Source: Polyangia bacterium (GTDB lineage Bacteria > Myxococcota_A > Polyangia > Palsa-1104 > SHYY01). Taken from it: a stretch of 64,000 nt of DNA. The stretch covers positions 4,611 through 68,610 of the forward strand of contig DATAGU010000153.1 of assembly GCA_036263495.1 (NCBI GenBank), written 5' to 3'. Position numbers and translations under genes: made by a program. Of this stretch, positions 19,202-45,624 are shown one piece after another. The notes under the pieces are model-generated. The model searched no databases. It was given only the letters and a program-made list of their open reading frames with translations, and was not told the DNA's origin. How positions within the stretch are numbered: the stretch's first letter is position 1; each line of letters opens with the position of its first letter.

Positions 19202-21589
19202 CTACTTCGCGATGAAGACGGCGAGGCCGCGGGCGCAGAGGCCGTAGGTCGTGAACTCGCCACCGATGAAGGTCTCCGAGCCGGGCGACGCCACCTGGTT
19301 CGCGCCTTCGGCGAAGGGACAGGTGTCGGTCACGCGGTACCAGCTCTTGCCGTTGAAGGGCCACGGCAGCGTGAAGTTCACGTTGCCCGACCAGCCGTTG
19401 TAGGCGATGTAGATCGCCGCCGCCGTGTCACCGAACTCGGTGCCGTCGATGCGCCAGGCGATGGCGTGCTGGTTCGGGTCGTTGAAGAACGTGGAGTCGG
19501 CCACCGAGCCGTCGGCCTTGAACCAGCGCAGCTGCTCCATCACGTTGCCGTTGTTGTCGACGCCGCTGTAGAAGTTGACCGGGCGCAGCGCCGGGTGCGC
19601 CTTGCGGAAGGCGACGAGCCGCTGCGTGAAGGTCTTGAAGTTCGTCTGATCGGTGTTGAGCGAGTAGTTCAGCCAGTTGGCGCTCGAGTCGACGTTGTAG
19701 GGGTTGTTGTTGCAGTTGATCGAGCGCAGCATCTCGTCGCCGCCCGTGAACATGGGCGTGCCCGCGCTGAGCAGGAGGAACGAGAGGCCGTTGCGCGCCG
19801 CCTTGCGCTGGTCGGCGGCGATGCCGCCCTGATCCCAGCTGTAGTTGGTGTCGTTGCCGCCGTCCGAGGGGCCGTAGGGCCACGTCTGGTTGTTGTTCTT
19901 GCCGTTGCAGGAGTAGAGATCCTTCAGCGTGAAGCCATCGTGGGCCACCATGAAGTTGATGGAGTTCCACGGGCGGCGGCCGTCGTCGCCGTAGAGGTCC
20001 GAGGAGCCGGCGAACCGGTTGGCCAGCTCCCCCGGGGTCACGCTCACGGTGCCGAGCTGATTCTGATCCTCGCGCAGCGAGTCGCGGTAGGTCCCGTTCC
20101 ACTCCGACCAACCGGCCGGGAAGTTGCCCACCTGGAACGAGTTGCCACCGATGGCCCAGGGCTCGGCGATGAAGTCCGTGCCCGTGCCGCCGCCGGCCGG
20201 CCGCGCGGGGAGGTCCCGCACGATGCGGTTGAGCGCCGTGCCCGAGTCGAGCTTGTTGTAGTTGTAGCAGCCGACCGTGCAGGTGTTGCCGAGGACCGAC
20301 GCGAGGTCGAAGCGGAAGCCGTCGATGCCCAGGCTGTCCTGGAAGTAGGCCAGCGAGTGGACAATCATGTCCTGCGCCACCGGCTTGTAGGTGTTGTAGT
20401 TACCGCCGACGCCGGTGTTGTCGTAGTAGAACTGCTTGTCGCTCGTGAGCTCGTAGTAGGTCGGGTTGTCGAGGCCACGGAAGGACATCACGTTGGCCGT
20501 CGAGGAGTCGCTGCCGTTCCACAGGCCACCCTCGCCCGTGTGGTTGTAGACCGCGTCGATGAAGACCTTGATGCCATTGTCGTGGAAGGCCTTGACCATG
20601 GCCTTGAACTCACGCGTCGGGCCGCCGGCCGACTTGTCGGCGGCGTAGCGGCGGTCCGGGGAGAAGTAATTGAGCGTCGCGTAGCCCCAGTAGTTGTCGC
20701 CCGAGGTGCTGGTCGCGTTGACGTCGTTGGCGTCGTTATCGGCCTCCTGCACCGGGAGGAACTCGACGGCGGTGACGCCCAGGCTGGCGAGGGCCGGGGC
20801 CTTGAGCGCCGCGCCCTGGTAGGTGCCGCGGTAGGCCGCGGTGATGCTGCTGTCGTTCTCGGTCAGGCCGCGGACGTGCACCTCATAGATGATGTCGTCC
20901 TTGAGCGCGCGGGTCGGCTTGGTGCCGAAGCTGGTCGTGTCCGGGGCGAGCACGATGCCCTTGGGCGCGTACGTGCCGCTGTCGAGGTTGCGATAGCTCG
21001 GGCCGCTGGCGAAGAACGTGCCGTTGGTGTTGCTCGGGTTGTTGGGGTCGTGGCTGAGCTCGCGGGCGTAGGGATCGTAGAGCAGCTTGTTCGGGTTGAA
21101 GCGGTTGCCGTTCGCGTCCACGTCGGAGATGAAGCCGGTGCCCGTGCCCTTGGTCCAGCTCGACGAGTAGGGCCAGTTCGGGCCCCAGGCGCGGTAGCCG
21201 TAGTAGACCGCGCCCGTGATGCCGTAGGTGTTCTGCAGCGTGGCGACCGAGACCGTGGTGCTCCACACGTTGGTGGTGGTGTTCTTGGTCAGGACGTACT
21301 TGGCCGCCTCCTGGGCGCCAAACGCGGTCTTGTAAAGCCACACCTCGATCCGGGTGGCCGCCGAAGAATAGACATTGAACGTGATGTTGCTCTTGGTGGC
21401 GTCATAGTTGGCGCCGAGGGTCCAGGTGACCGCCGACTGCGGCGCCTGGTCCACGGCCTCCACGGCCTCGGGCAGCGGGCCGCAGCTGCTCGCGAGGAGG
21501 ATTCCGGCGAGCGCGCCGCAGCGCACGCCGAGCCAGCGTCTGGTCTGACCGCTGAGCCAGGGGAAGAGGGCTTTGTCTTCACGGTTCAT
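19202..21589 (-). CDS. Secreted isoamylase-type glycogen/amylopectin debranching enzyme (GH13_11)
   Basis: 795 aa. Signal peptide, an N-terminal CBM48-like domain, and GH13 regions VFIDAVYNHTGEG, GIDGFRFDLASV, AEPW and MVAHDG. Confidence 0.85.
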   Translation of the reverse strand: MNREDKALFPWLSGQTRRWLGVRCGALAGILLASSCGPLPEAVEAVDQAPQSAVTWTLGANYDATKSNITFNVYSSAATRIEVWLYKTAFGAQEAAKYVLTKNTTTNVWSTTVSVATLQNTYGITGAVYYGYRAWGPNWPYSSSWTKGTGTGFISDVDANGNRFNPNKLLYDPYARELSHDPNNPSNTNGTFFASGPSYRNLDSGTYAPKGIVLAPDTTSFGTKPTRALKDDIIYEVHVRGLTENDSSITAAYRGTYQGAALKAPALASLGVTAVEFLPVQEADNDANDVNATSTSGDNYWGYATLNYFSPDRRYAADKSAGGPTREFKAMVKAFHDNGIKVFIDAVYNHTGEGGLWNGSDSSTANVMSFRGLDNPTYYELTSDKQFYYDNTGVGGNYNTYKPVAQDMIVHSLAYFQDSLGIDGFRFDLASVLGNTCTVGCYNYNKLDSGTALNRIVRDLPARPAGGGTGTDFIAEPWAIGGNSFQVGNFPAGWSEWNGTYRDSLREDQNQLGTVSVTPGELANRFAGSSDLYGDDGRRPWNSINFMVAHDGFTLKDLYSCNGKNNNQTWPYGPSDGGNDTNYSWDQGGIAADQRKAARNGLSFLLLSAGTPMFTGGDEMLRSINCNNNPYNVDSSANWLNYSLNTDQTNFKTFTQRLVAFRKAHPALRPVNFYSGVDNNGNVMEQLRWFKADGSVADSTFFNDPNQHAIAWRIDGTEFGDTAAAIYIAYNGWSGNVNFTLPWPFNGKSWYRVTDTCPFAEGANQVASPGSETFIGGEFTTYGLCARGLAVFIAK

Positions 21590-21711
21590 GTTGAACTCCT
21601 GGGAGGTGAAAGGATGACGAGGCGGGAGACCGCCGGATCCCTGTTGTGCGTCGGCCGTGCACTATACCGATCTCAAATCGGGAGCAAGTATTTCATGCAT
21701 GCACCCCAATC

Positions 21712-21752
21712 GTAAGTGCAGTATCGCTCCTCAGCCAATGTAAGTGCAGTAT
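21712..21752. promoter_or_regulatory. 13-bp direct repeat GTAAGTGCAGTAT x2 in the divergent isoamylase / alpha-amylase promoter region
   Basis: Copies at 21712-21724 and 21740-21752. A CATGCATG palindrome lies at ~21695. The intergenic region is relatively AT-rich. Confidence 0.3.
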
Positions 21753-22062
21753 GGCCACTCACGAATAATGCTACTCATCCGCGGCAAAGCATTCCGCCGC
21801 CGACCTCCTCCCCACCGGGATTCGATGTCCGCTGAACAATTCCAGCGAGGACCGCTACCAGCGCGGATGAAATGAGCCGTTTTCGCGCAGACTCATAGAA
21901 GCCTCCCCACACAACACGCATTCCGACGAACGCGCGCTCTGTAAGAAGGCCAAACCTCATCTTTCGCTACACGGAGGCAAGAGTTTGTTGCGCTCAGCGG
22001 GAACGCCATGTTAACGGCCTCCGCTACGCCTCGGGTCCTCACAAAGAAGAGGCCGGACCCTC

Positions 22063-23757
22063 ATGTCCTCTGTATTGCAAGTGGAAAGGAATCAGATGAA
22101 CATCACGGCTTATTGTTACAATTGTGTTACGCGCCTCTCATCAGCCCTCCCGGCCCTGTTCTGGCTATGCCTGGCGAGCGCCGGCTGCGCCGACCCCAGC
22201 AGCCCGACCCGCCTGACCCCCTCCCGCGAGGCCCAGGCCACCCAGCAGAACCAGGCCAGCAGCGCCATCCTCCTCCAGGGCTTCCACTGGAACTCCTGGA
22301 GCTACAGCGGCCCGAACTGGTACGTCCGCCTCCAGAACAACGCCGCCGACATCGCCTCCCTCGGCTTCACCCACGTGTGGTTCCCGCCCCCCAGCAACTC
22401 GGCGGCCCGCGAAGGGTACCTCCCGCGCGAGCTCAACCTCCTCGACTCCTCTTACGGCAGCGAGACCGATCTGCGCGCCGCCATCTCCGCCCTCTCGTCC
22501 CGGGGCGTCAAGTCCGTCGCCGACATCGTCGTCAACCACCGCGTCGGCGACACCGGCTACTACGACTTCCAGAACCCCGCCTGGGGCACGAGCGCCATCG
22601 TCAGCAACGACGAGTGCAACTGCGGCACCGGCGCCGCCGACAGCGGCTACGGCTACGGCTCCGCGCGCGACCTCGACCACAGCCAGTCCATCGTGCAGAC
22701 CGGCATCACCTCCTGGCTCAACAACCGCCTCAAGGCCGTCGGCTTCACCGGCCTCCGCTTCGACATCGCCAACGGCTACGCCCCGAGCTACGCCAAGACC
22801 TACCACGACGCCTTCGCCCCCGACTTCTGCGTCGGCGAGGTGTGGCCCACCCTCGATCTCAACAACGTCGACGCCAACCGCCAGGCCATCATCAACTGGG
22901 TCGACGGCACCCAGGGCACCTGCGGCGCCTTCGACTTCACCACCAAGGGCCTCCTCAACCAGGCCCTCGCCTACGGCGAATACGGGCGCCTGCGCGACGC
23001 CACCGGCAAACCCGCCGGCACCATTGGGTGGTGGGCGCAAAAGAGCGTCACCTTCGTCGACAACCACGACACCGGCCCGAACGAGACCTGCAACAGCGGC
23101 CAGCGCCTCTGGCCCGTGCCCTGCGACAAGGTGATGCAGGGCTACGCCTACGTCCTCACCCACCCCGGCATCCCGTCCGTCTACTACCCGCACCTCTACG
23201 ACTGGGGCCTCAAGACCGCCATCAAGGCCCTCATCGACGTGCGCCGCGCGCAGGGCATCACCTCCACCTCGACCATCTCCATCCAGAGCGCCCAGCAGGG
23301 CCTCTACGCCGCCATCATCAACGACAACACCGCCGTCAAGATCGGCCCCAACGCCTGGACCCCCGGCGCCGGCTGGACCCTCGCCGCCTCGGGCACCGAC
23401 TACGCCGTATGGACCAAGAGCACGACCCCCTGCACCGTGCCCATCACCTTCACCATCGCCAACGCCAACACCAGCCTGGGCCAGAGCCTCTACGTCGTCG
23501 GCAACCAGACCGCGCTCGGCAACTGGACCCCGGCCCAGGGCTTCAAGCTCACCATCCAGGGCAGCGGCGCCAACGTCCCCTGGAGCGGCACCGTGCAGCT
23601 GCCCGCCGCCACCGCCATCCAGTACAAGTACGTGAAGTACAACGGCTCGACGGCCGTGTGGGAGTCGAACGCGCCCACGACGAGCGGCAACCGCGAGCTC
23701 ACCACCGCCGCGTGCGGCGGCTCGAACACCCAGAACGACGGCAACTTCCGCTTCTGA
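22063..23757 (+). CDS. Alpha-amylase (GH13, plant/archaeal-like subfamily) with a C-terminal CBM20 starch-binding domain; probable lipoprotein
   Basis: LLQGFHWNSW, DIVVNHR, GLRFDIANGY, GEVW and FVDNHD motifs. The C-terminal ~100 aa resemble CBM20 (LGNW...YKYV). An alternative start is MNITAY at 22096 (signal LCLASAGC). Confidence 0.88.
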   Translation: MSSVLQVERNQMNITAYCYNCVTRLSSALPALFWLCLASAGCADPSSPTRLTPSREAQATQQNQASSAILLQGFHWNSWSYSGPNWYVRLQNNAADIASLGFTHVWFPPPSNSAAREGYLPRELNLLDSSYGSETDLRAAISALSSRGVKSVADIVVNHRVGDTGYYDFQNPAWGTSAIVSNDECNCGTGAADSGYGYGSARDLDHSQSIVQTGITSWLNNRLKAVGFTGLRFDIANGYAPSYAKTYHDAFAPDFCVGEVWPTLDLNNVDANRQAIINWVDGTQGTCGAFDFTTKGLLNQALAYGEYGRLRDATGKPAGTIGWWAQKSVTFVDNHDTGPNETCNSGQRLWPVPCDKVMQGYAYVLTHPGIPSVYYPHLYDWGLKTAIKALIDVRRAQGITSTSTISIQSAQQGLYAAIINDNTAVKIGPNAWTPGAGWTLAASGTDYAVWTKSTTPCTVPITFTIANANTSLGQSLYVVGNQTALGNWTPAQGFKLTIQGSGANVPWSGTVQLPAATAIQYKYVKYNGSTAVWESNAPTTSGNRELTTAACGGSNTQNDGNFRF

Positions 23758-23763
23758 TGCGGA

Positions 23764-26121
23764 TCACCTCGCGTCGTTGAGGAGCACCGTCACGCCGGCC
23801 TCATACGTCGCCACGGCCAGATCCGGCTTCCGGTCGCCGTTGAAGTCTGCCACCGCCACGCCGAAGGCCCCGGGCCCAGCGACGAAGAGACCCGGCGGCG
23901 GCCGAAACGCGCCCCTCCCGTCCCCGCGGAGGATCACCACGTCGTTGTTCCACGCCCGACTCGCGACCAGGTCCACCTGGCCATCCCCGTCGAAATCCCC
24001 GGCCGCCAGCGAGACCGGCAGCGCCCCGCCGGGATAGCCCACCGACGCCCGGAACGTCCCGTCCCCGACGCCGAGGAGCACCTGCACCGTGAAGTCGGTG
24101 TTGGCGAAGAACACGAACGACGTGCTGTGATCGGCCACGGCGAGGTCGTCCTTGCCGTCGCCGTTGAAGTCCCCCACCACCAGCGACGCCGGATGCACGC
24201 CCGCGGCATAGGAGACCGCCTCCTGAAATAGCCCACCCCCCATGCCGAGGCGCACGCTCACGTCGTGACCATCGTAGTTGGCGACGGCCAGATCGAGCCG
24301 CCGGTCGCCATTGAAGTCGCCCACGGCCACGGCCTTCGGCCCCAGGCCGGCGGGATGATGAACCGCCGCCTGGAACGCGCCGCCCCCGGCGCCGAGGAGC
24401 ACGCTCACGTCGTTCCCATCCGAGTTGGCGACGACGAGATCGACCCTGCCGTCGCCGTCGAGATCCCCGAGCGCCACCGAAGACGGACGCATCCCCGTGG
24501 CATAGGCCCGGGCGGCCGCGAAGCCGCCGCCCCCCGTGCCGAGGAGCACGCTCACGTCGTCACTGGCCCCGTTGGTCACCGCGAGATCCGCCGCCCCGTC
24601 GCCGTTCACGTCCCCCACGGCCACGAACGACGGCTCGCGGCCGGCGGCATGGCTCACCGCGGGCCGGAACGAGCCGTCCCCTGCGCCGACCAGCACGCTC
24701 ACGTCGTCGCTCCCGGCGTTGGCCACGACCACATCGGCCTGGCCGTCGCCGTCGAGGTCCCCCGCCGCCACGGACGACGGCTTCAGGCCCGCGGCATGGT
24801 TCACGTCCCTCGGGAAGGATCCGCCCCCCGTGCCGAGGAACACGCTCACGCTGTTGCTGCTGCTGTTGGCGACGGCGAGGTCGGCCCGGCCATCGCGATT
24901 GACGTCGCCGATCACCACCGCGTACGGGACCAGGCCGGCCGTGTAATGGACCGCCGGCGCGAACGAGCCGGTCCCGCCGTTCATCAGCACGCTCACGTCG
25001 CCGCCACCGACGTTGGCGACCGCGAGATCGTCCTTGCCGTCGCCATCCAGATCCCCCGCCGCCACGAACTGCGGGCGGGCGCCGGCCGCATATTCGGCGG
25101 CGGGGTCGAACCGACCGCTCCCCGTGCCGAGCAGCACCTTCACCCCGCTCCCCTGGTCGGCGAAGAGGTCGGCGTAGGCGACCGCGATGTCGTCATGGCC
25201 GTCGCCATTGAAGTCCCCCACCGCCACCGAGATCGGCTTCGGGCCCGCCGGGTAGTGGCTGGCGTCCTCGAAGGCGCCGTGCCCCGTGCCGAGGAGCACG
25301 GCCACCCCGTCGCCGGTCTCCACGCCATCCTCGTAGGCCACGGCGAGGTCGGCCTTGCCGTCGCCATTGAAGTCCCCCACCGCCGCCGCCACCGGGTTGA
25401 CGCCGGCGGGGTAGGGGACCGCGGCCAGGAGAGACCCGTCCCCGGCGCCGAGCCGCACGCTCACGGCCGGCGGACCGGCGGCGACGAGATCGTCCTTGCC
25501 ATCGCCGTTGAAGTCCGCCACCGCCAGGGCGTAGGGCACGGTGCCGCCGGGGTAGTCGACAGGCGCCCGGAAGGATCCGTCCCCCGTGCCGAGCAGGACG
25601 CTCACGCCGTCGCCCCCCACGGCGAGGTCGGCCTTGCCGTCGCCGTTGAAGTCCGCCACCGCCAGGGAGCGCGCGCCGAAGCTCACGTCGTGATGGACGG
25701 GGAGCAGGAACGCTCCGCTCCCCGTGCCGAGGAGCACGCTCACGTCGTGGCTCCCGTAGTTCGCGGTGACGAGGTCGATGTGGCCGTCGCTATTGAAGTC
25801 GCCGAGGGCGATGGCCCGGGGGGTCACGCCGGCCGGATAGTTCCGGCCCACCGGGCCGAAGCTTAGAGGCGTCGTCTGGGCGACGCACTGGCGCAGCGTC
25901 GTCCCTGCCATCTGCGCGGCGGGCGCACACACGCCGCTCTCGCAGTCGGCGCTTGTACGGCAACTGTGGCCTTCGCCACAGCGCGAGCAAGGGCCGCCAC
26001 AATCTACGTCGATCTCGTCGCCGTCGAGGAGGCCGTTGCGGCACGAGTCCTTCTTCGAAGAGCAGCCGAGCATCCCGGCGCACACCCCGACCAGGACAAC
26101 GGCGATACGGAATGTCTTCAC
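23764..26121 (-). CDS. FG-GAP/VCBS repeat lipoprotein (beta-propeller) with an N-terminal Cys-rich module
   Basis: MKTFRIAVVLVGVCAGMLGCSS lipobox; more than 12 repeats of GDFNGDGKADLAV...VSVLLG. Confidence 0.8.
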   Translation of the reverse strand: MKTFRIAVVLVGVCAGMLGCSSKKDSCRNGLLDGDEIDVDCGGPCSRCGEGHSCRTSADCESGVCAPAAQMAGTTLRQCVAQTTPLSFGPVGRNYPAGVTPRAIALGDFNSDGHIDLVTANYGSHDVSVLLGTGSGAFLLPVHHDVSFGARSLAVADFNGDGKADLAVGGDGVSVLLGTGDGSFRAPVDYPGGTVPYALAVADFNGDGKDDLVAAGPPAVSVRLGAGDGSLLAAVPYPAGVNPVAAAVGDFNGDGKADLAVAYEDGVETGDGVAVLLGTGHGAFEDASHYPAGPKPISVAVGDFNGDGHDDIAVAYADLFADQGSGVKVLLGTGSGRFDPAAEYAAGARPQFVAAGDLDGDGKDDLAVANVGGGDVSVLMNGGTGSFAPAVHYTAGLVPYAVVIGDVNRDGRADLAVANSSSNSVSVFLGTGGGSFPRDVNHAAGLKPSSVAAGDLDGDGQADVVVANAGSDDVSVLVGAGDGSFRPAVSHAAGREPSFVAVGDVNGDGAADLAVTNGASDDVSVLLGTGGGGFAAARAYATGMRPSSVALGDLDGDGRVDLVVANSDGNDVSVLLGAGGGAFQAAVHHPAGLGPKAVAVGDFNGDRRLDLAVANYDGHDVSVRLGMGGGLFQEAVSYAAGVHPASLVVGDFNGDGKDDLAVADHSTSFVFFANTDFTVQVLLGVGDGTFRASVGYPGGALPVSLAAGDFDGDGQVDLVASRAWNNDVVILRGDGRGAFRPPPGLFVAGPGAFGVAVADFNGDRKPDLAVATYEAGVTVLLNDAR

Positions 26122-26482
26122 CGTGAGACCCCTTCACCCGAGCAGCGGTAGGTCGCTGCTTCTATGCTCAAGCAGCATCGATGCCAGTCACCGCGCGGCC
26201 TCTGATGTGCAGGGTCGCTCCGCGCTCTGGGGTCCTCGGCCCACGCTGATGTCGCTGGGCCGAGCGGTGCTCCAGTTGCCTGCGGAGTCGCGCTCCGGAC
26301 CCTGCACATCAGAGGCCTCGCACACGCTCGGCAGGATCGTACGGGGAGCCGTATCTGCGACGGCGATTCAGGACGTCGCGCGCGGTGCGTGCGGGACGGG
26401 GGCAGCGGCTGGAGCGGGCGTTGTGCTTTTTTGAAGGGCCTCAGGGGGGGCGAGGCCTGCCGCGTCCGACGGCGGAGTGGTT

Positions 26483-26950
26483 CTATCCCTTTTCCATGGG
26501 GTCCCCGTGTTCGGCGCCGGGATAGATGTATACGACGGACAATTCTTCGTCCCGACGCGCGCCGGTCTTTGCGTACAGCGCCTGTGCCGCCAGGTTCCCT
26601 GCGCCCGTGAGGACGAACGCTTCATGCAGCCCTTCGGCCGCGACGATCTCACGCACATGCGTCATCAGACGCATGCCGACGCCGCATCGACGTGCATCGG
26701 CTGCCACATCCACCTCATACACGAACAATTGGGCCGGACGCTGGTCGATCCGTTCCAGGCGGTAGGCCCAGACAAAGCCGAGCAACCGTCCCGCCGATTC
26801 GGCGACGAGCAGATAGTGCGCGGGGTTCGCGAGCAGCTGGGCCGCGTACTCGATCGAGACCTGCGCCGATTTGTGAGCGGCGGCCACGGCCACGAGCAAG
26901 CGCTCGTCGCCAGGCGCCAGTCTGCGAGTGCAAACTTGCATGAGCTTCAT
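26483..26950 (-). CDS. GNAT family N-acetyltransferase
   Basis: RRCGVGMRLMTHV (Q/RxxGxG/A acetyl-CoA motif). Confidence 0.7.
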   Translation of the reverse strand: MKLMQVCTRRLAPGDERLLVAVAAAHKSAQVSIEYAAQLLANPAHYLLVAESAGRLLGFVWAYRLERIDQRPAQLFVYEVDVAADARRCGVGMRLMTHVREIVAAEGLHEAFVLTGAGNLAAQALYAKTGARRDEELSVVYIYPGAEHGDPMEKG

Positions 26951-27065
26951 GTGCCACGATCCGCGTCTTCAGAGAAGCGCGGCTCCGCCCACGTCGCCAG
27001 GCCATGCCCCACCGCCATGCGATGGTCAGGAGAGTGAGAGTCTAACGAGCTGGCAGAAAGGCATG
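26951..27065 (-). pseudogene. Duplicated toxin leader plus the first ~18 toxin codons, fused directly upstream of the GNAT gene
   Basis: 27006-27060 matches 29062-29120 and 61932-61975 (..catgcgatggtcaggagagYgagagtct..). It encodes MAWRRGRSRASLKTRIVAH (compare MALRRWRTLSCIRQHSL of the intact toxin), then shifts frame into GNAT. Confidence 0.5.
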
Positions 27066-27094
27066 TTTCGCGGGAGCGGGCGTGAGTGCGGGCG

Positions 27095-27673
27095 TTACTC
27101 GCCGACCGGCTTGAAGTAGGCGCCGACCAGGCCCTTGTCTTCGACCAGCGCCTTGAACTCGGCGGAGACCAGGTCGTGAAGCAGGCACTGCTTGCATTTG
27201 AAGAGATGGTGGCCGTCGGTGCTGCCGGGTTTGAAAGCATACTCTTCGACGATCATGATTTCCCCATCGGAATACCGCCGGACCTTCGAGCGCTCTTCAT
27301 CTAGGCAATCGACGATGTCGAGTATGTTCACAACCTGGAAGCGCCCAGGCCCATCGTGGGCGAGTGGTAAGAGTTCAATCCCGTCGCCGATAAGGGGTGC
27401 CAAGACCTCTGCCGCGCGATTTGAGAGAGCCAGACCATGACCCATGAGACCGATGAAGTCGACGGGCTTGCCGCGATTCTGCCGCACTGTGGCCCGCGTC
27501 CACTCCATGGGCACGGGTTCCCACCAGTCTGCACAGCGTACGCCCTCTGACAGCCTCCCGAAGATTGGAGACCATCCGCCAGGCCGGGATCCTAGAACGG
27601 TCAGCAGGTCATCGTGCTTATCTGGATTTGGATCCAGACGAAAAATCTTCGGCGGTGGAGAACTTTGGATCAT
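27095..27673 (-). CDS. Putative immunity protein for the adjacent AHH-nuclease toxin
   Basis: The ATG overlaps the toxin's TGA as ATGA (27670-27673). 192 aa, no signal peptide. Homologous 3' fragments recur at 59398-59652. Confidence 0.5.
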   Translation of the reverse strand: MIQSSPPPKIFRLDPNPDKHDDLLTVLGSRPGGWSPIFGRLSEGVRCADWWEPVPMEWTRATVRQNRGKPVDFIGLMGHGLALSNRAAEVLAPLIGDGIELLPLAHDGPGRFQVVNILDIVDCLDEERSKVRRYSDGEIMIVEEYAFKPGSTDGHHLFKCKQCLLHDLVSAEFKALVEDKGLVGAYFKPVGE

Positions 27674-29061: not shown

Positions 29062-29135
29062 GCTTCACCTCGATGCGATGATCGGGAGAGCGAGAGTCTA
29101 GCGAGCTGGCACCAAGGCATGTTTCGCGGTGCAGC
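29062..29135 (-). promoter_or_regulatory. Conserved 5' leader of the toxin gene (three copies in the window)
   Basis: The ~75 nt upstream of the toxin ATG are near-identical to 27006-27065 and 61932-61985. Confidence 0.4.
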
Positions 29136-29171
29136 CTCGGCGGCGAGGGCATCTCGGCGCAAGGCTGCCTG

Positions 29172-29470
29172 ATGGTGGATCGACCATGTCGACATGATCG
29201 CAGGATATGTCGACATGGTGGATCGACCATGTCGACATGGTCGCGGGATATGTCGACATGGTCACGGGATATGTCGACATGGTCGGGGGATATGTCGACA
29301 TGGTCGGGGGATATGTCGACATAGTCGCGGGATATGTCGACATAGTCGCGGGATATGTCGACATAGTCGCGGGATATGTCGACATGGTCGCGGGATATGT
29401 CGACATGGTGGGTCGACTATGTCGACATGGTCGCGGGATATGTCGACATGGTGGATCAACCATGTTCACA
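29172..29470. repeat. 21-bp tandem repeat array (~14 units, consensus ATGTCGACATGGTCGCGGGAT) containing the palindrome ATGTCGACAT
   Basis: Direct reading shows a near-perfect 21-nt periodicity. All six frames are open (heptapeptide artefact ORFs MSTYPAT and YVDMVAG). Confidence 0.9.
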
Positions 29471-29523
29471 TGGTGTGGTTACAGGTGCGATATAGGGTTT
29501 ATTATCCTATAATCATAAAATTC

Positions 29524-29552
29524 TTGACCTGCGGCATGGATCCTCTTTTAAT
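29524..29552 (+). promoter_or_regulatory. Sigma70-like promoter TTGACC-N17-TTTAAT in an AT-rich stretch
   Basis: TTGACC 29524-29529, 17-nt spacer, TTTAAT 29547-29552, located 38 nt upstream of ATG 29590. Confidence 0.4.
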
Positions 29553-29589
29553 GATCCTGTTTTATTTTACATCGGGTGAGGGGAATACC

Positions 29590-30219: not shown

Positions 30220-30394
30220 CACCAGCGGACGCTGGCGAGTTCGATATCCTCTGCCGGTTCCATGGTCCTGGATCCCCGCTCGGGTTCAAGCCCATGGGGG
30301 CGCCGAGATGTTCCCCTGTGGGACGGTGGCGTCTTCCCTTGCAGTAGGGAATGGATCTGCTTATTTTCAATGAAAAATTTGCGGGGATCAGAAG

Positions 30395-30820
30395 ATGGCT
30401 GAGTCGACGGCTGGGTCCAGCGGCGGTGGCAAGGCGTTCATCGCGGACAAGAGTCAGTGGCCTTTCGTGACGCTGCTCACGCCCAAGGGCGAGATCGACG
30501 TGGGGAGCTTCTTCTCCATCATCGACTCCTGCCTCGAGCGGCAATCCACGTTCGTCGTGCTGCACGACATTCGCGGGATGGGGTCCCTCTCGCCGCTGCA
30601 ACGAAAGCAGTTCTCGGAGTACATCAAGAGCCGGGAAATGTCCCTGAAGCAGTACATCGCGGCGCACGCGGTGGTGGTCAGCTCGGCGATCGAGCGCGGG
30701 ATCGTGACGGCGGTGTTGTGGGTGAGCCCGCCGCCGTTCCCGGTGCGCGTCTTCACCTCGCCGACCGACGCCGAGACCTGGGTCCGGGGGGAGCTGAAGA
30801 CGCGCTTGATGCGAAAGTAG
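30395..30820 (+). CDS. Hypothetical 141-aa protein
   Basis: Clean ORF with codon usage like its neighbours; no motif recognised. Confidence 0.45.
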   Translation: MAESTAGSSGGGKAFIADKSQWPFVTLLTPKGEIDVGSFFSIIDSCLERQSTFVVLHDIRGMGSLSPLQRKQFSEYIKSREMSLKQYIAAHAVVVSSAIERGIVTAVLWVSPPPFPVRVFTSPTDAETWVRGELKTRLMRK

Positions 30821-38126: not shown

Positions 38127-40016
38127 ATGGATATGGACAGGAGTTCTTGGATGAGCTGTCGTTCCCTCCGGGCCCTGGCGGCGTTCGCCCTGGTGCCTGC
38201 GCTCGGCGCCTGCCTCGACGTGAACCCGGTGCAGGACGATTTCAAGATCACGTCCAACGTGGTCGACTGGCGGGACGAGGTGATCTACCAGCTGCTGGTC
38301 GACCGGTTTGGCAACGGCGACTACAACAATGATCAGGGCGTGGACCCGAGCGGTCTGGCGCGCTATCAGGGCGGCGACTGGCAGGGGGTGATCGATCACC
38401 TCGACTATCTCGAGGCGCTCGGCGTGACGGCGCTCTGGATCTCGCCCGTGATCCGCAACGTGGACACCGACGCCAACGTCGATGGCTACCACGGCTACTG
38501 GGCGCAGGACTTCACGCTGACCAACCCGCACATGGGCGACCTCGCCAAGCTGCGCGAGCTCGTGAACACGGCGCACGCGCGGGGCTTCAAGGTGATCCTC
38601 GACATCGTCGCCAACCACGTCGGCCAGCTGTTCTACTACGACATCAACGGCAACGGCTTCCCCGACGAGACGCTGTATGGCTCGGGCGGCGACTCGACGG
38701 AGGTGCAGCGGGTCACGGAGTATGACCCGGACTTCAACCGGAACGGCCGGATCCAGGCGCGCACGTCGCTCGGCGAGTCGGGCGACGCCCAGATCCGCTT
38801 CATCTATCTGCCCGAGATCCATCGCATGCCGCCCATGCCGATCGAGTTCCAGAACCCGAACTGGTACTACCGGCGGGGCCGCACGGTGCACTTCGACCCG
38901 TACGTGGATCCGTTCAACCCGGCGCGCAGCTGCGACGCGCAGTGCGCGCTCGCGCAGACGCTGTATGGCGACTTTCCGGGGGGGCTCAAGGACGTGAACA
39001 CGGACCGCCCGGACGTGCAGCGGGCGTTCGTGGACGTCTACATGCGCTGGGTGGAGCTGGCCGACTTCGATGCCTTCCGCATCGATACGCTCAAGCACGT
39101 GGACCACCCGTTCTGGGAGTACTTCGCGCCCCAGATCCGCGCCCGCACCAAGGCGCTCGGCAAGAAGAACTTCTTCATGTTCGGCGAGGCGTTCGACGGC
39201 CGGGACGACCTCGTGGGGAGCTTCACGACCGGGACCAAGCAGGTGGATTCGGCCTTCTTCTTCCCGCAGAAGTTCGCGGTCATCGACCGGGTCATCAAGT
39301 ACGGCCAGGAGGGCACGACGTCGATCGAGAACCAGTTCCGGGCGCGGCTCAACTTCTACGGCCGTCAGCCCAAGGACAACGGGCCCGTGGCCGCCGACGG
39401 AACGCCGCTCACCACGCAGCAGCTCATGGTGAACTTCCTCGACAATCACGACATCGCCCGCTTCCTCTATCAGTACAAGGGGGCGGACGCGATCCCGGCG
39501 CTGCACCAGGCGCTGACGTTCCTCTTCACCGAGGACGGCATCCCCTGCGTGTATTACGGCACGGAGCAGCAGTTCAGTGGCGGCAACGACCCGGCCAACC
39601 GCGAGCGCCTGTGGGACTCGGGCTACAACACCACGGGCGAGACGTTCCGCTGGATCCGGACGCTGTCGGACATGCGCAAGAAGTTCCGCCCGCTGCGCCG
39701 CGGCAACCTGGACATCCGCTGGTCGACCCCGCGCATCGGTGACGAGAGCGACGCCGGCATCTTCGCCTTCGAGCGCAACGACGGCGGCAAGCGGGTGCTG
39801 GTGGTGATGAACGTCAACACCCGGCACGCGTCGTCGACGCAGGCGCCCGATGGCTCGCGCATGACCCTCAGCTTCCCGCCCGGGACGGTGCTGGTGAACG
39901 TGCTCGGCGACAACGACATCGCGCAGACGGGCTTCGATGGTTCGGCGGTGATCACCGTGCCGCCGCGCACGACCCGGGTCTATGTGGCGCAGGAGGATCG
40001 GGACGGGATTCCGTAG
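38127..40016 (+). CDS. Alpha-amylase family (GH13) lipoprotein
   Basis: Lipobox VPALGAC; DIVANHV, AFRIDTLKHV, FGEAFDG and LDNHD motifs. Confidence 0.85.
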   Translation: MDMDRSSWMSCRSLRALAAFALVPALGACLDVNPVQDDFKITSNVVDWRDEVIYQLLVDRFGNGDYNNDQGVDPSGLARYQGGDWQGVIDHLDYLEALGVTALWISPVIRNVDTDANVDGYHGYWAQDFTLTNPHMGDLAKLRELVNTAHARGFKVILDIVANHVGQLFYYDINGNGFPDETLYGSGGDSTEVQRVTEYDPDFNRNGRIQARTSLGESGDAQIRFIYLPEIHRMPPMPIEFQNPNWYYRRGRTVHFDPYVDPFNPARSCDAQCALAQTLYGDFPGGLKDVNTDRPDVQRAFVDVYMRWVELADFDAFRIDTLKHVDHPFWEYFAPQIRARTKALGKKNFFMFGEAFDGRDDLVGSFTTGTKQVDSAFFFPQKFAVIDRVIKYGQEGTTSIENQFRARLNFYGRQPKDNGPVAADGTPLTTQQLMVNFLDNHDIARFLYQYKGADAIPALHQALTFLFTEDGIPCVYYGTEQQFSGGNDPANRERLWDSGYNTTGETFRWIRTLSDMRKKFRPLRRGNLDIRWSTPRIGDESDAGIFAFERNDGGKRVLVVMNVNTRHASSTQAPDGSRMTLSFPPGTVLVNVLGDNDIAQTGFDGSAVITVPPRTTRVYVAQEDRDGIP

Positions 40017-40039
40017 TGAGTCTTTCCGGGGTGTGATGT

Positions 40040-42331
40040 ATGCGGCGAGTGTTGCTTGTCCTGGCCGCCTCCCTCGTGGGGGGCGGCTGTACCGAGGCGC
40101 CCCCACCTGAGAAGGTGCCTCGGGTGTGCAGGTTGGAGGCGTGGTACAGACCGGCGCGGGCCGAGGCCAACCCGAACCTCGATCTGACGGCGCAGGAGGC
40201 GCGGCGGCCGGAGCTCCTCGGGAGCTGGAACGGATGGAAGCGCCCGGGGCTCTTGCGCTGGGAGAAGCGCGTGACGCGCGATGGGACGGAGTGGCGCCGC
40301 GCGGTGATGAACCTGCCGCCCGGGACGTATGAGTACGGGATCCGTCTCGGCCAGCACTTCGTCCTCGACGAGACCAATCCGCAATCGACCTTCGTCACGG
40401 ATCCCCTGGCGTCGCCGGAGAGCGAACCGGTGACCTATGGGGTGGAGGTCTCGCGGATCGAGGTCGAGGATTGTTCCAAGCCGGTGCTGTACGTCGACGC
40501 GCTGCAGACGGTCGGGAGCGGGCTCGAGCTGCGCGCCGGGCTCCAGCCGGGGCGTGAGGGGGGGGCGCTGGATCCCGCCTCGTTGCAGTGGGAGTTGCGG
40601 CGCGGCCGCGAGCAGTTGCCGGCGGGGAGCCTGCAGCTCACGACCGAGGGCGACCTCATCACGCTGCGGGCCGCGGGCCTGGCGCCGGGCAAGTACACCC
40701 TCGCGCTCGAGGGGGCGGACCGGGAGGGGCGGCGCGCGGCACGCACCACGGTCAGCGCCTTTGTCGAGGCGGACGGGGGCGAGGGGGTGCGGCCGCTCGG
40801 CGATGGCCTCGTTTATCAGCTCATCGTCGATCGGTTCAGGAACGAGAACGGGGCGCTCGCGCCGCCCGACCTGCCGGGGGACCGCGCGGGCGGCGACCTG
40901 GCGGGTGTGCAGGCGGCGATCGAAGCGGGGTACTTCGAGCGGATGGGGGTGACCACGCTGTGGCTCTCGCCCCTGTACCAGAACCCGGCGGGGCGGCGGC
41001 TCGGGCGGGATGGTCGGCTGTACGAGGCGTACCACGGGTACTGGCCGAGCGAGCCGCGGTCGGTGGAGACGCGCTTCGGCGGCGAGGCGGCGCTCGACTC
41101 GCTGATCGCGGCGGCCCATGCGCGCGGCGTGCGCATCGTGGCCGACGCGGTGCCGAATCATGTTTACGAGTCGCATCCTTATTATCTCGCGCACTCGCGC
41201 CTGGCGAGCGACGTGTCCGCGAGCCCGGACCCCACGGCGGCGAGCTGGTTCAACGACGGCCCGAGCAAGTGCATCTGCGGTTACTCGCCGTGCGGCTGGG
41301 ACCAGACCTGCTGGTTCGACCGGTACCTGCCGGACTTCAACTGGCAGAACCCCGCGCTCGAGGACATCGGGGCCGAGGACCTCGTCTGGTGGACGAATCG
41401 CTTCGATCTGGATGGCCTGCGCATCGACGCGGTGCCGCTCATGCCGCGCGCGGCGACGCGGCTCATCAACCGCCGGGTGCGCCAGTCGGTGCGGCGGTTC
41501 GGGCTCGATGGGCTCCTCATCGGCGAGACCTACACCGGGCCCGGGGACCTCGGGCGCTCCGAGATCCGCGCCTACCTCGGCCTCAACTTCGATGGGCTCG
41601 ACAGCCAGTTCGACTTCCCGCTCATGTGGGCGACGCGCTCGGCGTTCGCCTTCGATCAGCTCGGGCTCGACGATCTGGAAGGGGAGGTGGAGGCGGGGGA
41701 CCGCGCGTGGGCCGGGTCGGGGGCGACGATCGCGCACATCATCGGCAACCACGACACGACGCGTTTCATCTCCGAGGCGGCCGGGGACGCGAACGTCGAT
41801 CCCTGGCTCGAGCCGCCCCCCCAGCCGACCGTGGACGGGCCCTACCTGCGGCACTTCCTGGCGATGACGTTCATGCTCACCCTGCCCGGGCTGCCGGTGA
41901 TATATCAGGGCGATGAAGTGGCCCTGGCCGGAGCGGGCGATCCGGATTGTCGGCGCGTGATGCCGGATGTCCTCGGGACCCTGCCGCCACGCCAGGCGGC
42001 GATGCTCGACAACGTATCGCGCCTCGGGCGGCTGCGCCGCTGTCTGCCGGCGCTGCGCCGCGGCACGAGGCAGGTCCTCTACAAGGATCGCGACCACTTG
42101 ATCGCGCTCCTTCAGCCCCCGGCGGGCGCTTCCGGGGGGCCGGCGCTGGTCGTGCTGGCCCATGGTCGTGCCCAGGGGGCCATCCCCATCCCGGGGATCC
42201 CTGCCGGGCGCTATCGCGACGCGTTGTCGGACACGCGCATCGAAGCGTCATCTACGACTTCGACTGTATTGAATGTAGCCCCCTGGACGGCTGCGGTCTT
42301 TCTGGAGGAAACCAGCCCATGCCACGAATGA
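40040..42331 (+). CDS. Alpha-amylase family (GH13) lipoprotein with an N-terminal E-set/CBM48-like domain
   Basis: LVGGGC lipobox; DAVPNHV, GLRIDAVPLM, IGETY and IGNHD motifs. Confidence 0.85.
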   Translation: MRRVLLVLAASLVGGGCTEAPPPEKVPRVCRLEAWYRPARAEANPNLDLTAQEARRPELLGSWNGWKRPGLLRWEKRVTRDGTEWRRAVMNLPPGTYEYGIRLGQHFVLDETNPQSTFVTDPLASPESEPVTYGVEVSRIEVEDCSKPVLYVDALQTVGSGLELRAGLQPGREGGALDPASLQWELRRGREQLPAGSLQLTTEGDLITLRAAGLAPGKYTLALEGADREGRRAARTTVSAFVEADGGEGVRPLGDGLVYQLIVDRFRNENGALAPPDLPGDRAGGDLAGVQAAIEAGYFERMGVTTLWLSPLYQNPAGRRLGRDGRLYEAYHGYWPSEPRSVETRFGGEAALDSLIAAAHARGVRIVADAVPNHVYESHPYYLAHSRLASDVSASPDPTAASWFNDGPSKCICGYSPCGWDQTCWFDRYLPDFNWQNPALEDIGAEDLVWWTNRFDLDGLRIDAVPLMPRAATRLINRRVRQSVRRFGLDGLLIGETYTGPGDLGRSEIRAYLGLNFDGLDSQFDFPLMWATRSAFAFDQLGLDDLEGEVEAGDRAWAGSGATIAHIIGNHDTTRFISEAAGDANVDPWLEPPPQPTVDGPYLRHFLAMTFMLTLPGLPVIYQGDEVALAGAGDPDCRRVMPDVLGTLPPRQAAMLDNVSRLGRLRRCLPALRRGTRQVLYKDRDHLIALLQPPAGASGGPALVVLAHGRAQGAIPIPGIPAGRYRDALSDTRIEASSTTSTVLNVAPWTAAVFLEETSPCHE

Positions 42332-43095: not shown

Positions 43096-45624
43096 ATGAA
43101 TCGGTATGTTCGTTATCTGATGGTAGCGTCCCTGGTCGGTGTGCTGCCGCTCGGCTGTAAGGCGGGAAATGGCGGAGGCCAGGACGGAGGAGCGGACCTT
43201 GGGGGGGGCAACCCAGACCAGGCCAGCAGCGCGACGTTCGTGCGCCTCCATTACAGCCTGGGGAACAACCCGGGCCAACTGAGCGACTGGGGCGTCTACT
43301 GGTTTGGCGCCGGCTCCACCTCGCCCGACTTCAACAACTCGCCCAAGTTCAGCCAGGTCGATAACTTCGGTGTCTACCGCGACATCGAAGTCACCGACAC
43401 CAACGCCTTCCTGGGCCTCATCCCGATCATCTGCAACAACGGCAGCTGCAGCCGCAGGGACGTCCAGACCGAGGTGCGCTACGCCGACCTGCCGGCGGTC
43501 CAGGGGTCGGCCAACATCCATGAGGCGTGGATCGTTCAGGGCCGCGCCGTGTCGATCACCCGGCCCGACCTCACCCTGCCGCAGTATCGGATCTTCCGGC
43601 CGAGCGAGTTCATCGATCTCGGCAACGGCTCGGTCCGCCTGACGTTCCGCGTGGCCCCGGGCTCGACGGGCACGGTGTCGTACGGCACCTCGCAGACCAC
43701 GCTCAATCAGACGGCCACCTGGACCGCGGCGAACGACATCAACAAGAACGGCCTGGTCATCAGCGGCCTCACGCCGGGCACGACGTACTACTACCGGATC
43801 AACACGTCGCTGGTCTCAGGGACCCAGACCTACACGGATCAGAGCCCGGTGCAGAGCCTGACGCCCATCTCCTTCTCGACCGTGAGCGACGCGGCCGATT
43901 GGGCCGGGTGGGGCAACAGCTCGCTCATGTACCAGATCTTCGTGCGCACCTTCGCCGACGGCGGGAGCACGAAGGCGGTGACCGACAGCCGCACGCAGAG
44001 CGGTATCGACCCGGCCACGCGGGACGGCGTCGGTGACCTGGTCGGGCTGCGGAACACCCTGCCGTATCTCAAGGATCTCGGCGTGGACGCGATCTGGATG
44101 ACGCCGGTGTTCAAGGCCCGGAGCTACCACGGCTACGATACGACCGACTTCTACGACATCGATCCGTCGGTCGGCACGATCCGGGACTTCGTCGACCTCA
44201 CCGAGGCGGCCCACGGGCTCGGCATCCGCATCATCGTCGACTTCGTCATCAACCACGTGGCCGACGTGAACCCCTGGTTCACCGCCGCCCTGAACCCGAG
44301 CGATCCCGAGTACGCCACCTATCGCGACTGGTTCGTCTACTCGGACGACTACGAGAACATCCTGACCGACCCGCACCCCTTCGACTCGTCGGCGGTCATC
44401 TGGGCGTGCCGCAACTACCGCTGCTACCACCAGATCTTCGGCTCGTCGATCCCGGAGCTCAACTTCCATAACCCGGTCGTGCGCGCCAAGATGAAGGACA
44501 TCGCCAAGACCTGGCTCGAGCGCGGCGCCGACGGCTTCCGTCTCGACGCCTCGAAGCACATCGACCAGTTCGACGAGAACAACGGCATCGCGTACGCGCA
44601 GCACGGCACGCACGTCTGGTGGAAGGAGTTCAACTACTACGTGAAGAAGCAGGTGACGACGCGTCCGGCGAGCGCCGCCAACCTGGGACAGGTGATCCTG
44701 GCGGGTGAGAACCGGTACGACGCCTTGAATCAGTATCAGTTCATGATTCCTTATGCCGGCGACATGGACTCGCAGTTCGACTTCCCGTTCCGTACCGCCC
44801 TCAGCAACCTCCTGAACGGTCAGACCGGGACCGGCTCGGACTTCATCGCCTACATCAACCAGGTCCAGATCGACTCGGGTCTGCCGACGAACAATGGCAA
44901 CACGAACCACTTCTATCAGCGGTTCCTGTCGAACCATGACCTCGATCGGCCGGCCAGCCAGTTCGCCTCGCTCGGCGGGGCGCAGCTCACCGGTCTCCTG
45001 AGGCTGGCCGCGAGCGCCGTGTTCACGGTGCCCGGCATGCCGGTCATCTACTACGGTGAGGAGTTCGGCAAGCAGGGCCAGCGCGACATGTTCAACGGCA
45101 TCGGCGGCTATCCGCGCGATGAGTTCATCCGCGAGCCGATGAGCTGGTTCCAGAATCTGACCTTCACCGGCAACCAGCAGACTTCGTACGACATCGACTT
45201 CAACGCGACGAACACCGCCAACGCCACGCTGCGGCAGGGAGACCCGCTGAATGGGGCGGGTGTCACCTCGGCGCCGAACCCCGACTACCGCTTCATCAAG
45301 TTCATGCAGGCGAACGACCCGAACTCCTGGGCGGCGCAGCGGAATGACCCGAACAGCCTGTACAGCTACTACAAGAAGCTGGTCCAGGTGCGGAAGGCGA
45401 CCCCGCTCCTCACCGACCCGACCGCCACCAGGGCGACGGTGACCAACTCCACCTCCCTGTACGAGTTCCGGGTGACCAAGGCCACGCAGTCGCTGTCGGT
45501 GGTGATGAACCGCACCAGCAACCCGCAGACCGTGACCCGGCCGACCACGTCCACGGACCTGCTCACGAACACGACGAACACTTCGTTCACCGTGCCGCCC
45601 TACGGCACGCTGATCCTGCAGTAG
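43096..45624 (+). CDS. Large alpha-amylase family (GH13) lipoprotein with N-terminal carbohydrate-binding / Fn3-like domains
   Basis: AGGAGG precedes ATG 43096. LPLGC lipobox; FVINHVAD, GFRLDASKHI, LAGE and LSNHD motifs. Confidence 0.85.
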   Translation: MNRYVRYLMVASLVGVLPLGCKAGNGGGQDGGADLGGGNPDQASSATFVRLHYSLGNNPGQLSDWGVYWFGAGSTSPDFNNSPKFSQVDNFGVYRDIEVTDTNAFLGLIPIICNNGSCSRRDVQTEVRYADLPAVQGSANIHEAWIVQGRAVSITRPDLTLPQYRIFRPSEFIDLGNGSVRLTFRVAPGSTGTVSYGTSQTTLNQTATWTAANDINKNGLVISGLTPGTTYYYRINTSLVSGTQTYTDQSPVQSLTPISFSTVSDAADWAGWGNSSLMYQIFVRTFADGGSTKAVTDSRTQSGIDPATRDGVGDLVGLRNTLPYLKDLGVDAIWMTPVFKARSYHGYDTTDFYDIDPSVGTIRDFVDLTEAAHGLGIRIIVDFVINHVADVNPWFTAALNPSDPEYATYRDWFVYSDDYENILTDPHPFDSSAVIWACRNYRCYHQIFGSSIPELNFHNPVVRAKMKDIAKTWLERGADGFRLDASKHIDQFDENNGIAYAQHGTHVWWKEFNYYVKKQVTTRPASAANLGQVILAGENRYDALNQYQFMIPYAGDMDSQFDFPFRTALSNLLNGQTGTGSDFIAYINQVQIDSGLPTNNGNTNHFYQRFLSNHDLDRPASQFASLGGAQLTGLLRLAASAVFTVPGMPVIYYGEEFGKQGQRDMFNGIGGYPRDEFIREPMSWFQNLTFTGNQQTSYDIDFNATNTANATLRQGDPLNGAGVTSAPNPDYRFIKFMQANDPNSWAAQRNDPNSLYSYYKKLVQVRKATPLLTDPTATRATVTNSTSLYEFRVTKATQSLSVVMNRTSNPQTVTRPTTSTDLLTNTTNTSFTVPPYGTLILQ

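Follow-up and report, generated by a model that had tools for sequence, protein, structure and literature searches.

A probable alpha-glucan utilization region with six GH13 genes and a distant LamB-type porin in a Polyangia bacterium

A contig of a Polyangia bacterium (DATAGU010000153.1, assembly GCA_036263495.1) carries a dense group of genes for starch-active enzymes, and the question raised by this locus is whether they encode a cell-surface machine comparable to the starch utilization system (Sus) of Bacteroidetes or a system of a more familiar kind. The window analyzed here is a 64,000-nucleotide stretch of that contig (positions 4,611 to 68,610), and the region in question lies at positions 19202-45624 of the window. 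An initial annotation had described at least six GH13 enzymes within 26 kb, nearly all with lipoboxes, beside a stand-alone CBM48-like lipoprotein and an outer-membrane barrel, and had read them as one Sus-like locus assembled from unrelated parts. We found this gene content to be accurate, with exactly six GH13 genes and a channel of the LamB family. The components are ordinary members of the GH13, CBM and LamB families, which does not agree with the notion of unrelated parts, and they are arranged in two sub-clusters instead of one locus. The region is an ordinary, if rich, porin-based alpha-glucan utilization region, a variation on known bacterial starch and maltodextrin systems. We propose that it is probably a composite region, centered on a LamB-type porin, for the utilization of alpha-glucans (starch, glycogen or pullulan to maltodextrin).

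Two modules of glucan-active genes

The G+C content of the window is ~70%, and spurious overlapping open reading frames (ORFs) are numerous. Genes were called from third-position GC bias, and protein families were assigned by Pfam and NCBIfam scans (Table 1). All six GH13 proteins retain the conserved regions I-IV and the Asp/Glu/Asp triad, as read directly from their motifs: DAVYNH/GFRFD/AEPW/VAHD in the isoamylase, GLRFD/GEVW/NHD in the CBM20 amylase, GFRFD/GEGW/VHD in the pullulanase, and AFRID/GEAF/NHD, GLRID/GETY/NHD and GFRLD/GENR/NHD in the three further GH13 proteins. Domain, hidden Markov model and PDB assignments also agree with the earlier proposal of a complementary set, in which the isoamylase and the pullulanase are predicted to act on alpha-1,6 and the amylases on alpha-1,4 linkages. 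Sandaracinus amylolyticus has 15 GH13 genes in 10.3 Mb (PMC5010890). Assuming the same density, ~0.04 GH13 genes would be expected per 26 kb and the Poisson probability of six or more is ~4e-12, so that the presence of six in 26 kb is not a matter of chance.

The region consists of two modules and is not one operon. The first sub-cluster, at 19.2-23.8 kb, contains the divergently oriented isoamylase and CBM20 amylase genes (module A); the second, at 32.9-45.6 kb, contains the pullulanase, the porin, three GH13 lipoproteins and the CBM48 lipoprotein (module B). Between them lie ~9 kb of unrelated genes (23764-32848). Module B is compact. A 320-bp intergenic region separates the pullulanase gene from the divergent lamB, which is followed after 10 bp by the gene designated GH13(679) and, after a further 23 bp, by GH13(763); the stop of the latter and the start of the CBM48 lipoprotein gene overlap by 13 bp, and a 222-bp gap precedes GH13(868). 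A terminator-like hairpin 3' of the last GH13 gene would mark the end of the unit. It should be mentioned that a simple terminator scan missed this hairpin, owing to its weak T tract. A metagenome contig, L001, is a close relative with 70-89% amino-acid identity and retains all of module B, from the pullulanase through the rhomboid gene. Its pullulanase counterpart, which contains frameshifts, lies upstream of lamB, and its GH13(868) orthologue occupies the same position with 70% identity.

In module A, the isoamylase aligns over nearly its full length with the Pseudomonas amyloderamosa isoamylase (PDB 1BF2, 1040 bits). This nearest solved relative is a secreted enzyme. The closest PDB matches of the CBM20 amylase are barley AMY2 (1AMY, 1.9e-99) and the maltotetraose-forming amylase of Pseudomonas (1GCY, 3e-60). 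Homologues of this amylase in metagenomes are mostly solitary, and among 28 related loci one also has an isoamylase and one a pullulanase. A conserved isoamylase-amylase linkage was thus rejected, a single occurrence in 28 loci being too weak. The intergenic region between the two genes holds a two-copy 28-bp direct repeat at 21706-21761 with the core AAGTGCAGTAT, detected by Tandem Repeats Finder and in the sequence itself. To call it a candidate regulator-binding site is only a guess; no similar motif is present in the other three promoter regions. A sigma-70 scan gave no match.

In module B, the pullulanase is of the PulA/limit-dextrinase type. Its lipobox is followed by a Gly/Thr/Asp-rich linker and, in the Pfam assignment, by two CBM41 (PUD) domains, an N2 domain, a CBM48, the GH13 domain and a C-terminal domain. 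Among PDB entries, it scores 894 bits against 4J3S, a limit dextrinase of barley, and ~710 bits against the Klebsiella PulA structures 2FHF/2YOC. GH13(679) matches alpha-amylases (43wj/4E2O), fungal amylases and CGTases with E-values from 1e-58 to 1e-44. GH13(763) has a weak AMPK1_CBM match at residues 58-102 and matches PDB 4E2O (4e-39). In GH13(868), the lipobox is followed by a Gly-rich linker, a CBM41 (PUD), an FN3-like domain, the GH13 domain and a C-terminal beta domain; its PDB matches are 1WZA (7.5e-50), 1LWH, alpha-glucosidases and SusG (3K8K, 6e-42).

One alternative is that these genes form no system at all, having been gathered by duplication or horizontal transfer and being regulated separately, so that the 26-kb locus is coincidental. 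The unrelated lower-GC genes between the modules, which include a toxin/immunity pair, would be consistent with this, as would the solitary amylase homologues, the search for an operator motif common to the four intergenic regions, which returned chance-level 9-mers only, and the frequent horizontal transfer of GH13 genes that Sharma et al. infer for a starch-degrading myxobacterium (PMC5010890). The Poisson estimate, the tight spacing of module B and its synteny with L001 argue in the opposite direction, and so does the recurrence of the porin-GH13 and GH13(763)-CBM48 pairs in distant genomes. We consider a coincidental grouping highly improbable.

Table 1. Positions of features in the window, with the glucan-active region first and the other features below
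Feature	Position	Strand	Assignment
Isoamylase, 795 aa, secreted-type	19202-21589	-	Pfam CBM_48, Alpha-amylase, Isoamylase_C (3e-51)
Divergent intergenic region, isoamylase/CBM20 amylase	21590-22062		GC 0.56
Alpha-amylase, 564 aa, plant-type C domain and C-terminal CBM20	22063-23757	+	Pfam Alpha-amylase, Alpha-amyl_C2, AMT4_dom_C, CBM_20 (3e-22)
PulA/limit-dextrinase-type pullulanase, 1144 aa	32935-36369	-	TIGR02103, 1198 bits vs cut-off 697.6
LamB-family carbohydrate porin, 475 aa	36689-38116	+	Pfam LamB 6.4e-20, 72.9 bits vs cut-off 25.1, profile 1-378/378
GH13(679) lipoprotein, 629 aa from this start, long B domain	38127-40016	+	Pfam Alpha-amylase 2e-49; lipobox ALGAC followed by LD
GH13(763) lipoprotein, N-terminal CBM48-like and Ig-like regions	40040-42331	+	Pfam Alpha-amylase 1.5e-36; lipobox VGGGC followed by TE
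CBM48-fold lipoprotein, 184 aa	42319-42873	+	Lipobox MIGC, Gly-rich linker of ~55 aa, four-Cys beta-sandwich of ~105 aa
GH13(868) lipoprotein, 842 aa from this start (alternative start 43018)	43096-45624	+	Pfam Alpha-amylase 1.5e-73, PUD
Terminator-like GC-rich hairpin, 13-bp stem	45690-45719	+	-29.7 kcal/mol, ViennaRNA
Partial treZ (TreZ N-terminus)	2-919	-	TIGR02402, 282 bits on fragment
FG-GAP/VCBS repeat lipoprotein, 785 aa, 13-14 repeats, Cys-rich N-terminal module	23764-26121	-	
GNAT acetyltransferase	26483-26950	-	
Imm11 immunity gene, overlapping the toxin stop	~27095-27673	-	
Secreted AHH-family HNH/EndoVII nuclease toxin	27670-29061	-	
DUF7793/SpoIIAA-like gene	30395-30820	+	
ORF of 557 aa	31175-32848		
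Lipoprotein of 209 aa	45846-46475	+	Uncharacterized family

The porin and its neighbors in related genomes

Based on its match to the LamB profile, the barrel protein is predicted to be a distant LamB-type passive carbohydrate porin. It carries a signal of the signal-peptidase-I type (…APLAALG followed by DDD). LamB maltoporin belongs to the maltose regulon of enterobacteria. There are 1436 homologues of the porin. Those with a taxon name come from metagenome-assembled genomes (MAGs) of Myxococcota/Polyangia or of broader proteobacterial assignment, and in many cases the label is maltoporin or carbohydrate porin. The best species-representative genome has a porin of 56% identity, and all best matches are to Myxococcota/Polyangia MAGs. 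When a 32-sequence porin profile was compared with the PDB, maltoporins were the sole matches, although weak (E 0.01-0.06).

Related loci with enough downstream sequence to be informative number 66. In 32 of them the porin gene has a GH13(679)-like gene no more than 10 kb away, and in 20 this gene comes directly downstream. In 10-19 related loci, malK, a malE-malF fusion and malG come after the pair of porin and GH13 lipoprotein. The best evidence for maltodextrin handling by the porin is the presence of these genes after the pair in relatives, and on this context we infer that the porin may serve maltodextrin uptake. The fused protein, with SBP_bac_1 and BPD_transp_1 regions in ~706 aa, is encoded at 14261-16381 of locus L002, with homologues in L007-L013, L034, L043, L054 and L070, and is conserved in 11 loci. 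Directly upstream of the LamB-like porin, a ~286-aa protein without a Pfam family is encoded in 14 related loci (for example at 9144-10004 of L002); the window encodes no equivalent of it. ABC permeases encoded near the right end of the window were considered as maltose-type components and rejected; the models that they resemble are those of B6-type ABC transporter permeases, with scores far under the cut-offs.

The gene order in these relatives (porin, GH13, MalK, MalE-F fusion, MalG) parallels the LamB/MalS/MalEFGK2 system of E. coli. The window differs from the E. coli system in lacking the MalEFGK-type ABC importer, in encoding the GH13 enzyme as a lipoprotein and in its extra debranching enzymes. 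GH13(679) was also tested as a MalS orthologue and rejected, with ~100 bits against the PRK09505 (MalS) models, whose cut-offs are at least 749. Given the position of its homologues between lamB and malK-malEF-malG, a periplasmic MalS-like role fits GH13(679) just as well as a role at the surface.

The same gene order would be consistent with a second alternative, in which default Lol sorting leaves every one of the lipoproteins on the periplasmic side, acting only on maltodextrins or glucans of lysed prey that have passed the porin. Proteobacterial lipoproteins do default to the inner leaflet of the outer membrane, in line with such a placement. On established enzymology, however, the isoamylase, the tandem-CBM41 pullulanase and the CBM20 amylase of raw-starch type require polymers or granules too large for a LamB-size channel, and GH13(679) is not a MalS orthologue. 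A purely periplasmic system is improbable in our judgment, though less so than a coincidental grouping.

Lipoprotein signals, the CBM48 lipoprotein and the comparison with Sus

By inspection and regular-expression searches, each of the seven glucan-active proteins, that is, all six GH13 proteins and the CBM48 lipoprotein, begins with a short charged n-region and a hydrophobic h-region, and a Cys lies in surroundings that resemble a lipobox. Several have non-canonical lipobox positions (ASSC, PLGC, GGGC). This pattern-level evidence indicates that the seven are probably lipoproteins of the signal-peptidase-II type. The lipobox reads LASAGC followed by ADP in the CBM20 amylase, AMTAC in the pullulanase and LPLGC in GH13(868). 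The least canonical of the set is the LLASSC context in the signal peptide of the isoamylase (…TRRWLGVRCGALAGILLASSC followed by GPLPEA). It is noted that the N-terminus of this protein (21500-21589) has a twin-arginine-like Q-T-R-R-W-L-G before the lipobox, and that the isoamylase might be a lipoprotein exported by the twin-arginine translocation (Tat) pathway. The lipoprotein reading is reinforced by the conservation of the Cys in the GH13(679) homologues, where it was found at 41 of 41 loci (35 by the strict regular expression and six by eye), often as C-x-D. At these 41 loci, the mature N-terminus of the family is very often of the form C-x-D (CVD, CTD, CYD, CLD, CMD), which could be a lineage-specific lipoprotein sorting signal.

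The residues after the Cys bear on the final location of the proteins. In Myxococcus xanthus, lipoproteins are exported to the matrix with Ala at +7 as the signal, and Lys at +2 marks retention in the inner membrane (PMC3222651). The isoamylase has Ala at +7 and GH13(868) has Lys at +2. If the rules of M. xanthus applied, GH13(868) would be directed to the inner membrane and the isoamylase to the outside; their transfer to Polyangia is an assumption. The pullulanase has Asn at +2. In three proteins, namely the pullulanase, GH13(868) and the CBM48 lipoprotein, the Cys is succeeded by a long linker rich in Gly. The lipoproteins may be tethered at the surface.

The stand-alone CBM48 lipoprotein has no Pfam or NCBIfam match of its own and is identical (100%) to 'hypothetical protein VH877_14315 [Polyangia bacterium]'. 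A word-index search retrieved three homologues only, and a phmmer search of 1.8 billion cluster representatives retrieved 133 relatives. In nine of ten long relatives the domain is directly N-terminal to a GH13 domain, and in six of them AMPK1_CBM, CBM_48 or CBM_20 matches cover the same residues. Of 79 short proteins of the family, 54 have the lipobox Cys, and many of the others are fragments. Complete short relatives are mostly lipoproteins with a Gly/Pro-rich linker, and the named ones are each a 'hypothetical protein' from Byssovorax and from delta/pseudomonadota MAGs. The pair of GH13(763) and CBM48 lipoprotein recurs in a Byssovorax MAG and in a deltaproteobacterial MAG (L090, L091), where the GH13 protein is again a lipoprotein (39-41% identity).

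The fold of this domain was addressed by structure prediction with AlphaFold2 (AF2). With a four-sequence alignment, the model had a predicted local distance difference test (pLDDT) score of 51 and its Foldseek matches were non-significant; a BLASTP comparison with the GH13(763) N-terminus reached an E-value of 0.41 only. With a 40-sequence alignment, the pLDDT of the model rose to 95.1. The best Foldseek matches of this model are the CBM of AMPK beta2, 4YEE (E 3e-5, template modeling score 0.83, root-mean-square deviation ~2 Å) and 2F15, and further matches are the CBM48 of the starch phosphatase SEX4 (3NME) and a feruloyl esterase CBM48. The CBM48-like nature given in the initial annotation is therefore confirmed as a CBM48 fold at the level of the predicted model. 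At two columns where the family has a conserved Trp (in 37/40 and 33/40 sequences), and which may be equivalent to the sugar-binding residues of AMPK, the window protein and its clade carry Phe and Thr (domain residues 38 and 78 of the window protein). YK(F) and Asn are retained at their positions. In this clade, four inserted residues precede the second of the two columns. These changes suggest that ligand binding may be altered relative to the rest of the family.

A third alternative is a surface machine of the Sus type, with all seven lipoproteins flipped to the surface in a tethered complex around the porin and the CBM48 lipoprotein in the role of SusE/F. The long Gly-rich linkers and the polymer-binding modules CBM20, CBM41 and CBM48 on several of the proteins speak for such an arrangement, together with the +7 Ala of the isoamylase and the homologous Klebsiella PulA, a pullulanase that becomes a surface lipoprotein through type II secretion (PMC7857515). 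Among the ORFs of the window scanned with Pfam, however, there was no match to a TonB-dependent receptor or Plug family or to SusD/RagB, and the window has no SusC/SusD, no Slam and no type II secretion gene (scans for Gsp/Pul families gave no match). A passive porin also requires no surface partner, the +2 Lys of GH13(868) is an inner-membrane retention mark in M. xanthus, and the porin-adjacent GH13 lies inside a lamB-malK-malEF-malG operon in relatives, as a periplasmic enzyme would. The M. xanthus rules themselves may not hold for Polyangia. We regard a surface machine of this kind as doubtful, if less so than a purely periplasmic one.

The Sus analogy of the initial annotation stands in one part and not in another. 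With the SusCDEFG system of Bacteroides thetaiotaomicron the window shares lipid-anchored GH13 enzymes (the SusG alignment of GH13(868) given above) and a non-catalytic lipoprotein of starch-binding type, which resembles SusE/F by function only and is not a homologue. The window differs in that its channel is a passive LamB-type porin, there being neither a SusC-like transporter nor SusD, and in that surface exposure is only predicted. Because SusC and SusD are absent and the channel is of the LamB family, the closest paradigm is PulA of Klebsiella oxytoca/pneumoniae with LamB rather than Sus. The two share the same GH13-type pullulanase, with a lipoprotein signal and a low-complexity linker, encoded beside a LamB-family porin; the logic, debranching outside and entry of maltodextrins through a passive specific porin, would also be the same. 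They differ in that malT, malEFGK and the pul genes for type II secretion are all missing from the window, which adds five GH13 lipoproteins and the CBM48 lipoprotein and has a porin distant from enterobacterial LamB. Klebsiella PulA has Asp at +2, whereas the pullulanase of the window has Asn. The CBM48 lipoprotein is also comparable to SusE/SusF and the Sas proteins of Ruminococcus bromii, as a small exported protein with an anchor, a flexible linker and a fold of starch-binding-module type, encoded beside amylases. It differs from them in fold family (CBM48), anchoring and phylum, and its binding is only predicted.

A composite model, the surrounding genes and their meaning

In the composite alpha-glucan utilization that we favor, the isoamylase, the CBM20 amylase and the pullulanase with its two CBM41 domains would work outside the outer membrane, tethered or released, to debranch and cut starch and glycogen, because these polymeric substrates exceed a LamB-size channel. 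The resulting maltooligosaccharides would diffuse through the LamB-like porin. GH13(679) would then trim them, probably with help from GH13(763) and GH13(868) and assisted by the CBM48 lipoprotein, either on the periplasmic side or else at the cell surface. The products would cross the inner membrane by a transporter encoded elsewhere, which in relatives is malK-malEF-malG, directly after the porin-GH13 pair. The uptake and export steps are assumed, since the window contains neither an inner-membrane sugar transporter nor a type II secretion gene.

Several observations weigh against this model. Pfam scans of the called ORFs found no inner-membrane sugar transporter and no type II secretion gene in the 64-kb window, and tblastn with the L002 proteins found no MalK, MalEF or MalG there. 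No regulator gene is present at 19-47 kb. Co-regulation of the two modules is unproven, with 9 kb of unrelated genes between them and an amylase that is mostly solitary in relatives. The porin is very distant from LamB (E 0.01 to PDB maltoporins), and its sugar specificity rests on context. Finally, with Phe and Thr in place of two Trp residues, glucan binding by the CBM48 lipoprotein may be weak or altered.

The two starch modules are split by a stretch of lower GC content (~0.63) at 26100-31150, which holds the acetyltransferase, immunity, toxin and SpoIIAA-like genes (Table 1) and looks like an inserted polymorphic-toxin island. A tandem repeat at 29186-29452 in this island consists of 12.6 copies of the 21-bp unit ATGTCGACATGGTCGCGGGAT (88% matches); overlapping ORFs of either strand would translate it into repeated heptad peptides. 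To the left of the island, the repeats of the FG-GAP lipoprotein are visible in the DNA as 147/294-bp repeats at 24133-25066, and no link of this protein to starch was found. To its right, the 557-aa ORF matched no family, lacks a signal peptide and had no homologue among the loci retrieved, and is left unassigned. Flanking genes compatible with Myxococcota include a Ser/Thr kinase with AAA_16 and TPR regions, an FHA-GAF-HD protein and the FG-GAP protein. VH877_14315 and VH877_14325, each a 'hypothetical protein' [Polyangia bacterium] of a third-party annotation (TPA) metagenome-assembled genome, match two of the region's small proteins with 100% identity. An exact-sequence look-up of the pullulanase gave no record.

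Downstream of the last GH13 gene, the 209-aa lipoprotein belongs to an uncharacterized family with only 14 homologues. Synteny with L001 extends to this gene, but homologues at a greater distance (L085-L089) adjoin MbnB/DUF692 and HvfC_N genes and not GH13 genes. As a starch component this lipoprotein was rejected, in view of these neighbors and of the strong hairpin that separates it from the last GH13 gene.

At the left edge of the window, the initial annotation had taken a partial treZ as a sign of nearby trehalose synthesis from the same glucans. The TreZ fragment is genuine. Its start has no signal peptide, and 18 kb with more than ten unrelated genes, among them those for a methyltransferase, a kinase, proteases, regulators, NAD synthetase and a transglutaminase-like protein, separate it from the locus, so that treZ is uninformative about the exported system. 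It belongs to cytoplasmic glycogen-to-trehalose metabolism and is not linked to that system.

Starch degradation by myxobacteria, and GH13 enzymes with CBM48, CBM20 or CBM41, are already documented in earlier reports (PMC5010890; PMC12093494; PMC11544908). AmyM and CoMA of Corallococcus sp. EGB, the isoamylase MIsA of Myxococcus sp. V11 and the enzymes of S. amylolyticus belong to the same phylum and, as described, to the same enzyme families. The available passages of two of these papers catalogue or characterize single enzymes, and those of the papers together do not discuss porin linkage or lipid anchoring; in the available text of PMC5010890, a search for the terms 'maltoporin' and 'lipoprotein' gave no occurrence. 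Searches of the literature for myxobacterial maltoporin, or for lipoproteins with a CBM48, gave nothing relevant. Modestly new are the uniformly lipoprotein enzyme set and the conserved module of porin and GH13 lipoprotein in Myxococcota. The same can be said of the stand-alone CBM48 lipoproteins, an unannotated family of ~130 clusters at 50% identity, all labelled hypothetical.

A more far-reaching view is that the region is a porin-coupled counterpart of Sus in Myxococcota, in which linker-extended, lipid-tethered GH13 enzymes and CBM48 lipoproteins would take hold of starch or glycogen on the outside of the cell and supply a LamB-like channel. We think this view rather unlikely. If true, it would represent convergent surface glycan capture without a TonB-dependent transporter and would imply a surface-export route for lipoproteins in Polyangia. 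The enzymes, the porin and lipoprotein pullulanases are textbook components, and the value of the composite alpha-glucan utilization region proposed here lies in annotation and enzyme discovery, not in a new principle. Two conserved modules of Myxococcota, the porin with a GH13 lipoprotein and the GH13 enzyme with a CBM48 lipoprotein, are flagged by this analysis. If the model is true, the region would provide a concrete gene set for the use of starch and glycogen, including glycogen from lysed prey, by uncultured soil Polyangia.

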